Shown here piece by piece: positions 3,463-6,150 of a stretch of DNA of 64,000 bases. A program made the position numbers and the translations under genes. The notes beneath the pieces are model-generated. The model did not search any database and had not been told where the DNA came from. It saw only the letters and a list, made by a program, of their open reading frames with translations. The stretch is from an uncultured Candidatus Rokubacteria bacterium (lineage in GTDB: Bacteria; Methylomirabilota; Methylomirabilia; Rokubacteriales; CSP1-6): NCBI GenBank assembly GCA_963762145.1, contig CAVXJS010000011.1, positions 416,001-480,000 on the forward strand, in the 5' to 3' direction. Each line of letters begins with the position of its first letter. The stretch's first letter is position 1.

Positions 3463-4530
3463 ATGGAGCCGAGGCTGATCGATCCGAAGACCGGCAAGGA
3501 GATCCGTCTCACCGCCTACGCGGCCTGCGCGGGCTGAGCGTCGAAGATGGGTCCTGGAGATCTCCAGGACGTGCTCGGGGACCTGCGCGACGAGGAGCAC
3601 GCCGACCTGCTGGTGGGGCTCGGCCGGAGCGACGACGCCGCCGTCTATCGCGTGACCGACGACGTGGCCATCGTCGAGACGGTGGACTTCTTCCCGCCCA
3701 TCGTGGACGATCCCTATCTCTTCGGGGCGATCGCGGCCGCGAACTCGATGTCCGACGTGTACGCGATGGGCGGGCAGGTGCTGTTCGCGCTCAACGTGGC
3801 GGGCTTCCCGCGCGAGCTGCCCAAGGACATCATCGCCGCCGTCTTCCGCGGGGGCGCCGACAAGGTGCGTGAGGCGGGCGGCGTCATCGCGGGCGGGCAC
3901 ACCGTCGTGGACGCGGAGCCCAAGTACGGGCTCTGCGTGACCGGCCGGGTGGACCCGCAACGCATCCTGATCAAGGGCGGGCTCCGCCCGGGTCAGCGGG
4001 TGTTCCTCTCGAAGCCGCTCGGCACCGGGGTGATCGCGACCGCGGCCAAGAGCGACCGGTGCGAGCCCGCCGTGCTCGACGGCGCGGTGCAGAGCATGCT
4101 GCGGCTCAACCGCGTGGCCGCGCTCGCGGCGCTGGAAGCGGGGGCGACCGGGGCCACCGACATCACCGGCTTCGGGCTCCTCGGCCACGCCAGCGAGATG
4201 GTCGCCGCCTCCGGCGCAGGTCTGGTCCTTCGGAGCGCCGACCTGCCGCTCTTGCCGGGTGCGCGCGCGCTCGCGGACCTCGGAACCTTCAGCGGCGGCA
4301 TGGGCCGCAACCGCCGCTACCTGGAAGACGAGTTCGGACGGCTCCGCATCGACCCGGCGGTTCCGGACGCGCTCGTCAAGCTGCTCTGCGAGTCGGAGAC
4401 CTCCGGTGGTCTTCTCTTCGCCGTCGATCCAGCACGCGCCGTCACCGTGCACGAGGCATTCGCGCGCGCCGGCGAGCCCGTCTGGGAGATCGGTGAGGTA
4501 ACCGCCGAGCTGCCCCTCGCGCTGATCTAG
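3463..4530 (+). CDS. selD: Selenide, water dikinase (selenophosphate synthetase), selenoprotein with in-frame UGA
   Basis: ATG 3463 gives MEPRLIDPKTGKEIRLTAYAACAG-[TGA 3535-3537]-ASKMGPGDL, in frame with ORF 3547-4530 (DDAAVY, TVDFF, SDVYAMGG, GGHT, TDITGFGLLGH, TSGGLL). The UGA sits at the catalytic Cys/Sec position. Confidence 0.95.
3551..3570 (+). promoter_or_regulatory. Candidate bacterial SECIS hairpin for the selD UGA
   Basis: GTCCTGGA-GATC-TCCAGGAC perfect 8-bp stem starting 13 nt after the UGA, with G in the loop. Confidence 0.65.
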
Positions 4531-4551
4531 GCACCGGCGGCAAGATCAACC

Positions 4552-4603
4552 GCTTCGAGCGCGGGCTTCGCCCGCGCAACCTGCTTCTGGGGGGAGGTTC
4601 GGA
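4552..4603. repeat. One part of a REP-like palindromic intergenic element split by the IS110
   Basis: GCGCGGGCTTCGCCCGCGC hairpin plus GGGGGGAGGTTCGGA; joins 5733-5754 when the IS is removed. Confidence 0.55.
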
Positions 4604-4620
4604 AGCGACTGTCTTGCCGG

Positions 4621-5553
4621 TCAAGCGGGTTGCCATGGGCGGCGGTCCCGGAGCATGGCGTTGAGGATCGTGAGCAACTTGCGCATGGCCGCGATGACGG
4701 CGACCTTCTTGGGGCGCCCCGCGGCCGTGAGCCGCCGGTAGACCTCCCGGATCACCGGGTTGTGGTGAATCGCCACGATGGTGGGCATGTACAGCGCGCG
4801 GCGGACGGCGGCCCGGCCCCCGCCGATCATGCGCCGCCCCCGCCAGCGGCCGCTGTCGCGATTCCACGGCGCCAGGCCGACGAGCGCGGCAATCCGACGC
4901 CGATCCAGCCGACCCAGTTCCGGGAGGTCGGCGATCAGCGCGTGCGCGGTGAGGGCGCCAATCCCGGGCGCCGAGGTCAGCAGATCCTCCGTCTCCCGCC
5001 ACACGGAGCTCGTGCGAATGAGCCGGGCGATCGCCGCGTCGACCTCCGCGATCGCCCGCGTGAGCCACGTGACGTGCGCCCGGATGCGCTGTTGCAGCCC
5101 GCGGACCCGCGCTTGGCGATGCCGGTTCTGCTCGGCCCCCAGCATATCGACGAGCTGGCGCCGCCGGGCCACGAGTTCCCCCAGCCCCTGCGCCTGCTCC
5201 GTGGCCAGCGGCCGCGCCGCCGGCTGCACCAACTCCGCAAAGCGCGCATTGGCCCGCGCATCGAGCCGATCCGTCTTCGCCAGCTGCCCCGTGGCCAGCG
5301 CAAACTGCCGGACCTGCCGGGGATTGACCACCGCCACCGGTAACCCGGCGTGCGCCAGCGCGGCGGCGACGGCGCTCTCATACCCGCCGGTCGCTTCCAG
5401 CACAATCAGCGTCGGCCGCAGGTCGACCAGCCGGTGCACCAGCGTGGCCACCCCCGCCTCTTCGTACGCCACCGCGAACTCCTCATCCGTGGGGCGTACA
5501 TGCACGTCCAGCCGATCCTTCGAGACATCCAGCCCCACGAAGATCCGTTCCAT
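4621..5553 (-). CDS. IS110-family DEDD recombinase/transposase
   Basis: Start MERIFVGLDVSK (ATG 5553); LEATGGYE, KTDRLDA, PGIG and GLAPWNRDSG (Tnp-domain Ser) motifs; appears intact. Confidence 0.95.
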   Translation of the reverse strand: MERIFVGLDVSKDRLDVHVRPTDEEFAVAYEEAGVATLVHRLVDLRPTLIVLEATGGYESAVAAALAHAGLPVAVVNPRQVRQFALATGQLAKTDRLDARANARFAELVQPAARPLATEQAQGLGELVARRRQLVDMLGAEQNRHRQARVRGLQQRIRAHVTWLTRAIAEVDAAIARLIRTSSVWRETEDLLTSAPGIGALTAHALIADLPELGRLDRRRIAALVGLAPWNRDSGRWRGRRMIGGGRAAVRRALYMPTIVAIHHNPVIREVYRRLTAAGRPKKVAVIAAMRKLLTILNAMLRDRRPWQPA

Positions 5554-5718
5554 GTCCCGTCCTTGTCGATGCGGGCTCGCCGAGCGGCCCAAGCGACTGT
5601 TCGGGTTCACGGCACGTGAAGCGGCAGGCAGGGCCCCAGGCTTCCGAACGGTCTTGGCCGACCCAGGGGGGCGCGGGCTCCCGCCCGCCTTCACTCCGGC
5701 TACGCTATCCGCCGGAGT
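5554..5718 (-). ncRNA. Predicted IS110 bridge RNA (5' hairpin, target-binding loop, donor-binding loop)
   Basis: Contains GCGCCCCCCT (5674-5665) and GTTCGGAAG (5649-5641) matching the flanks, and ACAGTCGCT (5600-5592) and ACAAG (5566-5562) matching the circle junction, each inside internal loops of predicted stems. Confidence 0.85.
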
Positions 5719-5732
5719 TCCTAAGATACAAG

Positions 5733-5754
5733 GGGGGCGCAGCCCCCCTCCGAG
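5733..5754. repeat. Other part of the REP-like element interrupted by the IS110
   Basis: Minus-strand CTCGGAGGGGGGCTGCGCCCCC continues into CTTCCGA on excision, forming a GC hairpin. Confidence 0.55.
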
Positions 5755-6018
5755 CTATCTACTCGCGTCGGAGCGCTTCAGGAACGCGATCAGCTTCTGG
5801 CGGAGCTCGGCGGGGAGATTCGTCTCGGGGTGCTCACGAAGACGTCGGGCGGCGTTGACGGTACCTTTGTAAGTGTTGACGAAGGCCACGCACGGCGGGC
5901 AGCCGTCGAGATGCCACTCGAGCTGCGCGGTTTCCTCTTGAGGGAGCGACCCGTCGATGTAGTCGGCGAGCAGCTCGACACACTCCGGGCACCCGATCTC
6001 GCGCGACGCTCCGTCCAT
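5755..6018 (-). CDS. Small zf-HC2 (anti-sigma zinc-finger) domain protein
   Basis: CPECVELLADYIDG...HLDGCPPC (HxxxCxxC). Confidence 0.85.
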   Translation of the reverse strand: MDGASREIGCPECVELLADYIDGSLPQEETAQLEWHLDGCPPCVAFVNTYKGTVNAARRLREHPETNLPAELRQKLIAFLKRSDASR

Positions 6019-6150
6019 CCGCTCCCCCTCGCCGGTGAGGCGATGACCTTGTGTAGCGAAACCTTAACACAGGGCCGGCCCGGAGCAAGTCCGTCTTTGC
6101 TTTCGCGTCAATTGCCTTGCCGCGCGGCGCCGGTGTAGGCTCTCGAAGCC

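Follow-up and report, generated by a model that had tools for sequence, protein, structure and literature searches.

The window analyzed here, a 64,000-nt stretch of a contig from an uncultured Candidatus Rokubacteria bacterium, carries on its minus strand a recombinase gene bounded by two identical CT dinucleotides, with a left end that extends 177 nt past the core and a right end of only 17 nt counting the core (Table 1). Long terminal inverted repeats are absent, and the sole inverted pair is a 3-bp AAG...CTT that flanks the donor halves. Every string that a first-pass annotation of this DNA had proposed as an end, core, hairpin or guide was recovered in place.

Table 1. Features of the element and its flanks, in window coordinates (cores, flanks and guides are written 5' to 3' on the minus strand).
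Feature	Position	Strand	Remarks
Whole IS110-group element, both CT cores included	4604..5732	minus	1,129 bp; 1,127 bp with one core
Recombinase gene, 310 aa	4621..5553	minus	D9, E53, D95, D98 and S234 align with the IS621 DEDD and Ser
Left CT core	5731..5732	minus	read from sequence
Right CT core	4604..4605	minus	read from sequence
Left flank GCGCCCCC	5740..5733	minus
Right flank TCCGAAC	4603..4597	minus
REP-like hairpin GGGGGG-CTGCG-CCCCC	5748..5733	minus
Left target half CGCCCCC (target positions 1-7)	5733..5739	minus	3' arm of the hairpin in the row above
Right target half TCCGA (target positions 10-14)	4599..4603	minus
Left donor half ACAGTCG (donor positions 1-7)	4606..4612	minus	right end of element
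Right donor half TGTAT	5730..5726	minus
Predicted -35 box TTGACC	4619..4624	minus	right end; overlaps TGA stop codon; 17 nt from -10 box once joined
Predicted -10 box TATCTT	5723..5728	minus	promoter complete only in circle; overlaps right donor half TGTAT
5' stem-loop of bridge RNA	5693..5718	minus	ACTCCGGC 5718..5711 with GCCGGAGT 5700..5693
Target-binding loop and closing stem	5623..5689	minus	5689..5674 pairs with 5637..5623
Left target guide CGCCCCCCU	5665..5673	minus	same sense as left flank + core
Left target guide as first annotated, (G)CGCCCCCCT	5674..5665	minus
Hairpin within target loop, GGTC-loop-GACC	5650..5663	minus	GGTC 5663..5660, GACC 5653..5650
Right target guide UCGGAAG	5641..5647	minus	complement of core + TCCGA
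9-nt right stretch GTTCGGAAG	5649..5641	minus	includes GU 5649..5648, apparently matching by chance only
Target-loop handshake positions CC	5639..5640	minus
Linker hairpin UUCACG-UGC-CGUGAA, between the two loops	5606..5620	minus	only some homologues have one
Donor-binding loop	5556..5605	minus	stem CCCG 5605..5602 / CGGG 5559..5556; inner hairpin 5590..5573
Left donor guide ACAGUCGCU (ACAGTCGCT)	5592..5600	minus	same sense as right end + core
Right donor guide AUCGACAAG (ACAAG within ATCGACAAG)	5562..5570	minus	discontiguous pairing with CTTGTAT, CG bulged
Donor-loop handshake positions GA	5560..5561	minus

The recombinase matched PF01548 (RuvC-like DEDD, N-terminal; E = 5e-21) and PF02371 (Tnp, C-terminal; E = 6e-18) in Pfam, and scored 211.7 bits, against a cut-off of 140, to the NCBIfam model NF033542 ('IS110 family RNA-guided transposase'). 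Among solved structures its best match was the ISCro4 transposase (PDB 9t56; E = 6e-36, residues 3-307 of 310), a comparison made at the protein level only, followed by a likewise nearly full-length match to IS621, which has the same two-domain organization of DEDD and Ser (PDB 8wt6; E = 4e-34). The residues D, E, D, D and SG line up in these matches: the four acidic ones sit in GLDVSK, VLEATG and KTDRLDAR, opposite the equivalent IS621 motifs, and S234-G235 aligns with the IS621 SG (catalytic numbering from the text of Hiraizumi et al. 2024, PMC11208158). A longer frame of 357 aa starting from the GTG at 5694 was rejected: homologues begin at the ATG, and the gap lengths in the left-end alignment, which are not multiples of three, also oppose it.

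The genome contains three copies of the element, each spanning exactly the 1,129-bp extent, and these are its only matches to NF033542. The copies are ~99% identical (pairwise differences at 8-9 of 1,129 positions), all three frames are open, and the guides are free of differences; one sister copy has a different loop in the hairpin that lies within the target loop. All three are inserted at the same site of the same REP-like repeat, CTCGGAGGGGGGCT(GC/AT)GCCCCC-CT-TCCGA, with a right flank that reads TCCGACG in both sisters. The hairpin repeat that hosts the insertions follows stop codons in this genome.

Minimum-free-energy folding of the left end yielded a 5' hairpin, a target-loop stem with its hairpin and a donor-loop stem with its hairpin, which reproduces the three-part fold proposed in the first-pass annotation. 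The fold energy of this single left end was not significant (z = -1.39; 21 of 200 shuffles folded equally well), and a scan of positions 4300..6100 against Rfam 15 with E up to 10 matched no bridge-RNA family, its sole match being a chance one to the Brucella sRNA CII26 (11.5 bits vs 218). Homologous left ends were more informative about the stems. We aligned 17 of 26 delimited left ends, leaving aside nine that were longer or more divergent (L016, L018, L029, L030, L031, L035, L036, L038 and L039), and found 94.6% of stem cells paired, compared with 33-44% when the partners were slid. Changes on both sides were seen in 13 pairs, compared with 2-5 with slid partners, and none of 500 shuffles reached the observed values. 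Both sides had changed in 3 of the 4 pairs of the 5' stem-loop (helix 1) and in 9 of the 15 pairs of the stem that closes the target loop (helix 2). These compensatory changes speak for the left end being a structured RNA.

To compare guides with insertion sites, we started from 42 loci and removed seven: six same-place duplicates (L005, L019, L023, L024, L026 and L027) and L004, a 58-nt chance match. Both boundaries and sufficient flank were available for 24 of the remaining 35 loci (L009, with a right flank of 4 nt, was excluded). An exact complement of the core plus five flank bases was present in the locus's own left end for 17 of 20 distinct left ends, the other three matching over 5 nt, compared with 10 of 360 mismatched pairings. 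At its anchored position the right guide matched 7/7 in 16 of 19 guide pairs (mean 6.79 vs 3.77 for 324 cross pairs), and the best 9-mer match of the left guide averaged 6.68 (vs 5.51 for 342 cross pairs); in each case none of 10,000 permutations reached as high a value. Covariation of guides and flanks among homologues, which had been put forward as a check on an RNA-guided system, is thus present, with the left guide following the left flank.

The left-guide match in homologues was frequently 6/9 and at times lower: anchored by eye, it fell to 3/9 in L042 and to 4/9 in both L033 and L016 (unanchored best matches of 6, 5 and 5, respectively). Such weak matches may reflect either a tolerance of mismatches or copies that are off-target or decayed. 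In the element itself the left guide had been credited with 10/10 matches. Nine of these belong to the guide; the tenth, G 5674, is invariant and forms a pair within the stem that closes the loop.

On the donor side, the 7-nt left donor guide is identical to the right end of the same locus in 23 of 25 loci, across six heptamers. Right donor guides follow the frame AU-(0-3 nt)-(A/G)C(A/U)AG; the form AU...(A/G)CAAG recurs in most homologues, as called with a search pattern that presupposes it. Because the opposite side, CT-TGTAT, is near-invariant, covariation on the right donor side is little informative. The IS621 donor had been quoted as ACAGTAT-CT-TGTAT and called nearly identical to that of the element: A6, T7, C8-T9 and T10 of that string agree with the text of PMC11208158, but the full string has no occurrence in the main text of either PMC11208160 or PMC11208158 and presumably stands in figures or supplements. 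Donor positions 6-7 are CG here and AT in IS621.

The bases that follow the right-hand guides conform to the handshake model (Hiraizumi et al. 2024, main text of PMC11208158), in which the non-cognate position 7 pairs and the cognate one does not. In the element, the first C of the target-loop CC could pair with donor position 7 (G) and not with target position 7 (C), and the G of the donor-loop GA with target position 7 (C) and not with donor position 7 (G). Among homologous loci, donor position 7 is a fitting partner for the target-loop base in 25 of 25, with one informative change (L015, A with U), and target position 7 is one for the donor-loop base in 27 of 28, among them L015 (G with C) as well as L016 (T with A); by eye, L035 (T with A) fits too, as does L038 (G with C). 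Informative changes are few in these counts.

When the two ends are joined in silico they create a predicted sigma-70-type promoter with 9 of 12 consensus matches, and a promoter-like site is absent from positions 4450..5900 of the integrated sequence. The same promoter criterion was passed by 12 of 25 homologous junctions and by none of 25 integrated left boundaries, the junction failures being mostly -10 boxes that end in C or A. TTGAC was within the pattern used to search for right ends; its presence in homologues is not independent evidence.

Together, the protein family, the three near-identical copies in one repeat, the covariation of guides with flanks and ends, and the compensatory stem changes identify this as a bridge-RNA element, very probably an intact insertion sequence of the IS621 type, belonging to the IS110 group within the family of that name. 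This is the reading that the first-pass annotation had reached, with an IS621-type bridge RNA that encodes both its own target and its own donor. Its further description as 'naturally reprogrammed' was overstated: every natural orthologue carries its own guides, and Durrant et al. 2024 analyzed 5,511 ncRNA-target pairs (PMC11208160, main text).

By homology with IS621, the element would be transcribed, form circles and be catalytically competent. Its recombinase, with a RuvC-like DEDD domain and a Tnp domain bearing the catalytic serine, would excise it as a circle, and the joining of right end to left end would assemble the promoter TTGACC-17 nt-TATCTT, from which the ~170-nt left end could be transcribed as the bridge RNA. 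The first internal loop of this RNA would read the 14-bp target CGCCCCC-CT-TCCGA through a 9-nt left and a 7-nt right guide, and the second would read the circle junction ACAGTCG-CT-TGTAT. After strand exchange, the base that follows each right-hand guide could pair with position 7 of the other DNA (the 'handshake'), and recombination at the CT core would insert the element into the REP-like hairpin repeat.

Other readings of the same locus can be weighed against this one. It could be a variant bridge system with an extended 9-nt right target guide and a truncated 5-nt right donor guide, since in this copy all nine bases after the GACC hairpin complement the core plus seven flank bases, and some orthologues have right target guides that exceed that of IS621 (Durrant et al., main text of PMC11208160), in which the right guide reads target positions 10-14 (Hiraizumi et al., main text of PMC11208158). 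However, throughout the family the GACC hairpin is followed by a near-constant G(T/A/C), which supplies the two 5'-most bases of the stretch; these agree with the flank in 4/18 and 0/18 other guide pairs, and both pairs are broken at the sister copies, which have the same RNA next to TCCGACG. On this sequence comparison the two extra matches are fortuitous, and the working guide, once described as unusually long, is of the family-standard 7 nt (core + 5). The right donor match had conversely been called short, at 3 nt, but AUCGACAAG can pair with all seven bases of CTTGTAT once CG is bulged out, in the 9-on-7 discontiguous pattern described in the text of Durrant et al. (PMC11208160). We regard the variant system as improbable. 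Scarcely credible is the proposal that the left end is no RNA guide and that the guide-like matches are a by-product of insertion into a C-rich palindromic repeat; low-complexity similarity or terminal sequences read by the protein would be its possible sources. The target is indeed C-rich, the genome has 70% G+C, and CGCCCCCCT is found five times in the window. Against this, the covariation spans unrelated targets (for example CTGTGTC-CT-CTGTG, GCGTCCG-CT-GCCCC and ATGAGGT-CT-AACTT), and the compensatory stem changes favor a structured RNA. Moreover, both guide words co-occurred in only 6 of 200,000 mononucleotide shuffles of the left end (the 9-nt left word occurred in 735 and the 7-nt right word in 1,990); a chance origin of the matches is unlikely.

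A further alternative accepts the element as a true IS110 member and holds that its mobility has been lost, the three copies being fixed relics that drift has kept, or a domesticated copy. A perfect free 14-nt target is absent from the 88%-complete assembly (6 sites at ≤1 mismatch, 100 at ≤2), so the scope for further spread within the genome may be small. For the rebuilt empty site of 17 nt, the window offers no match with up to 2 mismatches and the whole genome no exact one (1 at ≤1 mismatch, 3 at ≤2 and 49 at ≤3). At least part of it was present, as contigs, in 20 of the 24 listed rows of public runs that were considered for the whole stretch. The contigs of four metagenome DNA runs, none of which spans the whole stretch, contained neither a circle junction nor a trustworthy empty site, although missing contig support of this kind does not count against mobility. 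Three 'skip' joints did occur in contigs (4583>5730, 4593>5730 and 4604>5733). Because their sides are short (25-30 nt) and they carry extra letters or mismatches, one of them skipping 1,128 nt rather than 1,127, they are probably other copies of the repeat and not the empty site. RNA-labelled runs contained 0.06-0.13 of the sampled words. Decay has also occurred at homologous loci: L017 is frameshifted, the frame of L042 is partial and its left guide matches poorly, and the left end of L040 lacks its beginning. In this genome, in contrast, the copies share 99% identity, their frames are open, their catalytic residues intact and their guides the same, and nothing that the IS621 model requires is missing, the predicted junction promoter and the non-cognate handshake bases included. 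Loss of mobility therefore appears unlikely.

The intact IS110-group element that we favor has its closest described counterpart in IS621 of Escherichia coli, an IS110-group bridge recombinase (Durrant et al., PMC11208160, and Hiraizumi et al., PMC11208158, both 2024). As far as the text of these papers describes IS621, the two have in common a long left end, a short right end and CT as the core; a bridge RNA in which a 5' stem-loop precedes the target loop and the donor loop; a 14-bp target divided 7 + 2 + 5; a discontiguous right donor guide; handshake bases; a promoter rebuilt in the circle (predicted here); and insertion into REP-like sequences. The element is a distant orthologue of IS621, known here from sequence and coming from an uncultivated soil lineage of high G+C content. 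Its target, CGCCCCC-CT-TCCGA, differs from the ATCAGGC-CT-AC given for IS621 in the text of PMC11208160; its very short right end extends 17 nt past the stop codon, with the -35 box overlapping that codon; and it has an additional linker hairpin between the loops. Elements of the IS1111 group share the recombinase family and the RNA-guided logic, with the seekRNA or bridge RNA in the right end, and are described in the main text of PMC11208160 as having a short left end, a long right end and sub-terminal inverted repeats of 7-17 bp, whereas here the left end is 177 nt, the right end 17 nt and the inverted pair only 3 bp.

The element is an ordinary new representative of a family described in 2024, and knowledge of that family is unchanged. 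Literature joining IS110 or bridge RNA with Rokubacteria or Methylomirabilota was not found among the matches listed, and Supplementary Data 2 or the orthologue tables of Durrant et al. might list the element's family. What it adds is a natural example of a bridge-RNA system in G+C-rich soil bacteria that are uncultivated, with a full base-level map of four guides, two handshake positions, a predicted junction promoter and the catalytic residues. Its ~20 relatives show, independently, the same covariation that was published for IS621 (of guides with targets, of guides with donors, and at the handshake), and could form a small natural data set on the asymmetry in tolerance between left and right guides. 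The element could also serve as an extra orthologue in bridge-editing screens, for example for G+C-rich targets.

Lastly, we offer a more speculative and doubtful reading, in which this would be a very compact (1,127 bp, 17-nt right end), currently active bridge recombinase of an uncultivated Rokubacteria-like lineage that chooses its target by a DNA hairpin in the left half as well as by the 14-bp RNA match, and that is strict at the right half-site (core + 5) while tolerating poor left matches ('half-match' insertion). The half-match idea derives from the anchored left-guide matches of 4/9 (L033) and 3/9 (L042) seen by eye. Hairpin-dependent target choice is proposed from the abstract on ISPpu10 of Pseudomonas putida, a 'structure-gated' element (bioRxiv 10.64898/2026.03.19.712850). 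According to that abstract, all ISPpu10 insertions lie in copies of one intergenic repeat, as they do here, and the target left half of our element, being the 3' arm of a hairpin 5' of the core, resembles the 'target DNA 5' stem-loop' of ISPpu10. The bridge RNA of ISPpu10 is described there as having no 5' stem-loop, whereas the element analyzed here has one.

On the minus strand, the sequence in and around the element runs, in order, through a stop codon, CTCGGAGGGGGGCTGCGCCCCC, CT and TGTATCTT and, farther on, ACAGTCG, CT and TCCGAAC, and every string named in the first-pass annotation lies where that annotation placed it. The protein encoded by the element matches DEDD_Tnp_IS110 (5e-21) and Transposase_20 (6e-18) in Pfam, and scores 211.7 bits, against a cut-off of 140, with the NCBIfam equivalog NF033542, 'IS110 family RNA-guided transposase'. 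Among solved structures it matched only two transposases, those of ISCro4 (9t56, 6e-36) and IS621 (8wt6, 4e-34), each over nearly the full length. Residues D9, E53, D95, D98 and S234-G235 fall inside motifs that align with motifs of IS621, in which the corresponding residues are described, in the available text of Hiraizumi et al. (2024, PMC11208158), as the DEDD active site and catalytic serine loop.

Features of the element and its surroundings, in window coordinates
Feature	Position	Strand	Remarks
Element including both CT dinucleotides	5732..4604	-	1,129 bp
Recombinase frame	ATG 5553 to TGA 4623..4621	-	310 aa; sole long frame of the element
TTGACC	4624..4619	-	right end; overlaps stop codon
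TATCTT	5728..5723	-	left end
selD, selenide, water dikinase	3547..4530	+	TIGR00476, 5e-97
Anti-sigma-factor-like gene	6018..5755	-	87 aa; weak hits below cut-off (RsrA-like, 1.7e-8)
REP-like repeats	5733..5748 (-) and 4560..4603; genome contigs C7, C9, C14, C19, C21		pattern search

In the minimum-free-energy fold of 5732..5554, a 5' hairpin is followed by a long stem around an internal loop that carries a small GGUC/GACC hairpin (the first, target-binding loop); after a short linker hairpin, another stem encloses the second, donor-binding loop, which carries a GGGC/GCCC hairpin. Its energy is unremarkable (z = -1.39; 21 of 200 shuffles fold equally well), and a single-sequence fold by itself proves nothing. 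We aligned 17 of 26 delimited left ends, omitting nine more divergent or longer ones, and RNAalifold returned 35 pairs in five helices. Standard pairs occupied 94.6% of cells, versus 33-44% when partners were slid by 1-3 columns, and 13 pairs had changed on both sides, versus 2-5 when slid; none of 500 shuffles reached the alignment's values on any measure. The target-loop closing stem supplied most of the covariation signal (compensatory change in 9 of 15 pairs), and the variable columns are the guide segments and hairpin loops. Rfam 15 held no family matching the left-end RNA.

Homologues were sought among the proteins of 100 other genomes of the same family, 13 of which gave matches at E up to 1e-40; a scan of one genome per species gave 17 loci (41-68% identity), in MAG records titled Candidatus Rokubacteria, Rokuibacteriota and Methylomirabilia, and also Gemmatimonadota, Hydrogenophaga, Burkholderiaceae, Gammaproteobacteria, Dehalococcoidia, Stellaceae and Planctomycetota. 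Removal of 7 loci (6 duplicates, 1 chance hit) from 42 left 35, and 24 of these had both ends and sufficient flank, representing 20 distinct left ends. Element ends were set by conserved terminal words alone, with the guides unused: on the left, CT before a TGTAT-like word; on the right, TTGAC, 7 nt, a heptamer and CT.

An exact complement of the core plus five flank bases was present within the element's own left end in 17 of the 20, the other three matching over 5 nt, while mismatched element/flank pairs succeeded in 10 of 360. When the right target guide was read at a fixed position just 3' of the small hairpin, it matched at 7 of 7 positions in 16 of 19 distinct pairs, at six in two and at five in one (mean 6.79, versus 3.77 in 324 cross pairs). 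The left target guide, scored as the best 9-mer match to seven flank bases plus the core, averaged 6.68, versus 5.51 in 342 cross pairs. The first-pass annotation had proposed covariation of guides with flanks among homologues as a check, and it holds: on neither side did any of 10,000 flank permutations score as high. For the window element itself, only 6 of 200,000 left-end shuffles held both the 9-nt word equal to left flank plus core and the 7-nt word complementary to core plus right flank.

These comparisons also revise the guide lengths first proposed. The right target match had been called unusually long, at 9/9, and resolves into seven real and two fortuitous positions. The two 5'-most bases, which directly follow GACC (an almost invariant G, then T, A or C), agree with the flank in 4 and 0 of the other 18 guide pairs, and the sister copies in the same genome have the same RNA but CG for AC at both extra flank positions. 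A right target guide of core plus five is common to this element and IS621, whose structures have the guide bound to target positions 10-14 in the available text of Hiraizumi et al. (2024, PMC11208158). Likewise, the tenth left match (G 5674) drops out as a guide base, being invariant across homologues and paired in the loop-closing stem.

Left matches are looser than right ones, typically perfect over the 4-6 bases beside the core and degenerate farther out, and from these alignments the clade's natural insertions seem more tightly constrained in the right half-site than in the left one. Three loci (L033, L042 and L016) match at 7 of 7 right positions, yet their anchored left guides match by eye at only 4, 3 and 4 of 9 (unanchored best 5, 6 and 5). 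Off-target 'half-match' insertion (the term is from the title of bioRxiv 10.64898/2026.08.31.748434) may account for them, as may decay of the inserted copies. In several homologues (L007, L014, L030-L033) the last base of the left target guide is not T.

On the donor side, 23 of 25 loci have a second-loop heptamer identical to the right end of the same element, across six kinds of heptamer (ACAGTCG, ACAGTTG, ACAGTTA, ACGGATG, ACGGTTG and ACAGATG); the other two loci are copies of a single element, and each has one mismatch. The right donor match, initially described as short, covers the whole of CTTGTAT once two bases are bulged: in AUCGACAAG, CTTGT is paired by ACAAG and AT by AU, with CG bulged between them, so that nine RNA bases lie over seven DNA bases. 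The homologues fit the frame AU, 0-3 nt, (A/G)C(A/U)AG, in a search whose pattern presupposed that frame, and this guide shows little covariation because the facing CT-TGTAT is nearly invariant. At the end of the left donor guide that would be expected to face the CT core (alignment columns 148-149), the final two bases read CT in the window and AC, CC or CG in many homologues. In this clade, the left-hand guides seem able to do without core pairing.

In each right-hand guide of IS621, the bases that follow the core-pairing part on its 3' side were shown to pair with positions 6-7 of the other DNA after strand exchange, and to block exchange when paired with the cognate DNA (Hiraizumi et al. 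2024, PMC11208158, available text). At the corresponding place in the window, the target loop has C, complementary to the G at donor position 7 but not to the C at target position 7, and the donor loop has G, complementary to the C at target position 7 but not to the G at donor position 7. Across loci this handshake rule held for 25 of 25 target-loop bases and 27 of 28 donor-loop bases, the exception (L018) being a truncated contig with 44% identity. With G and C dominant, many of these rows carry no information; those that do agree with the rule, namely L015 (donor A with U, target G with C), L016 (target T with A) and, as judged by eye, L035 (T with A) and L038 (G with C).

Joining the two ends through one core places TTGACC and TATCTT 17 nt apart with 9 of 12 consensus matches, and no promoter-like site was found on either strand of the integrated region 4450..5900. 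Homologous junctions passed the same criterion in 12 of 25 elements with both ends, compared with 0 of 25 integrated left boundaries; failing junctions mostly have TATCTC or TATCTA as the -10 box. According to the available text of Hiraizumi et al. (2026), bridge RNA is weakly expressed from integrated copies, and excision is less efficient than insertion. By analogy with that work and with IS621 biochemistry, the element would be excised as a circle and its bridge RNA transcribed from the junction promoter; two recombinase dimers would assemble on the two RNA loops, the top strand would be cut after the CT core via a phosphoserine link, handshake bases would aid strand exchange, and resolution would leave the element inserted at CGCCCCC-CT-TCCGA.

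The source assembly (6.26 Mb, 25 contigs, 88% complete, 70% G+C) contains three copies of exactly 1,129-bp extent, which are its only NF033542 matches. All three recombinase frames are open. One sister departs from the window copy at 8 of 1,129 positions and the other at 9; two of these differences affect the small hairpin's loop within the first RNA loop, and the guides have none. Each copy lies directly after a stop codon in the common motif CTCGGAGGGGGGCT(GC or AT)GCCCCC, CT, TCCGA, followed by AC in the window and CG in both others. A small REP-like repeat family is found immediately after stop codons, with the form GGAGGGGGG-loop-CCCCCCTTCCG..., often followed by CCTCCCCCC and GCGCGGGCG-AAGC-CCGCGC. 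Besides the 3 occupied repeats, the pattern search located 10 unoccupied ones, each at least one base off the 14-bp site, and the assembly, at 88% completeness, held no perfect unoccupied site; one free repeat, on contig C21, matches the whole 14-bp site save GT for the CT core.

The 3' arm of a DNA hairpin makes up the target's left half, an arrangement that recalls the 'target DNA 5' stem-loop' requirement reported for ISPpu10 (bioRxiv 10.64898/2026.03.19.712850, available text). The insertion site lies between the convergent ends of selD and the anti-sigma-factor-like gene. After insertion, 5723..5748 (minus strand) reads as the repeat hairpin GGGGGG-CTGCG-CCCCC followed by the T-rich start of the element (CTTGTATCTT). 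This was the only terminator-like site scored in 4450..5900, and it could keep transcription of the anti-sigma-like gene from running on into the element.

Public runs with this stretch are soil and rhizosphere metagenomes; in the four examined as assembled contigs, none spanned the whole stretch. Three joints skipping the element fitted imperfectly and had short sides; other copies of the repeat are their probable source. In one run (X1) the element contig (window 4678..5754) had a word depth of 13, versus about 3.9 for flanking contigs, which fits three genomic copies collapsed into one contig and has no bearing on activity.

At the sequence level, the element has a complete recombinase gene, a structured left-end RNA, four guides that match target and donor, handshake bases, a split promoter and three copies in one repeat. 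Protein models, covariation of guides with flanks and element ends, and stem covariation bear out the first-pass identification of an IS110 element with its own guide RNA, and we consider its assignment to the IS110 group with an IS621-type bridge RNA highly probable on sequence grounds. Of the group's defining features, all those testable in silico were found; since, in addition, a bridge-RNA model built from covariation of 5,511 RNA-target and 2,201 RNA-donor pairs is already published (Durrant et al. 2024, PMC11208160, available text) and the NCBI annotation model NF033542 already terms such proteins RNA-guided transposases, the element belongs to a known kind, and the high novelty first claimed for it is not supported. 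Specific to it are its lineage, the linker hairpin, its compact build, with a right end of 17 nt, and a C-rich target of 14 bp within a hairpin repeat. The IS1111 group was considered and rejected, its long right end and long sub-terminal repeats both being absent.

Some relatives are decayed: the recombinase frame of L017 (same place as L023) is split at residue 195/196, L042 aligns over residues 21-271 only, and the left end of L040 lacks the CT-TGTAT start. Palindromic repeats recur as targets across the clade. The flanks of L020 and its sister copies L006 and L025, in one genome (G038), are inverted repeats of each other (…CCCTCACCCTGCCCCTCTCCCC, CT, CCGGGGGAGAGGGCAGGGTGAGGG…), so that the element sits at the apex of a long palindrome, and L030-L032 adjoin CTCTCCCGCAAGCGGGAGAG palindromes.
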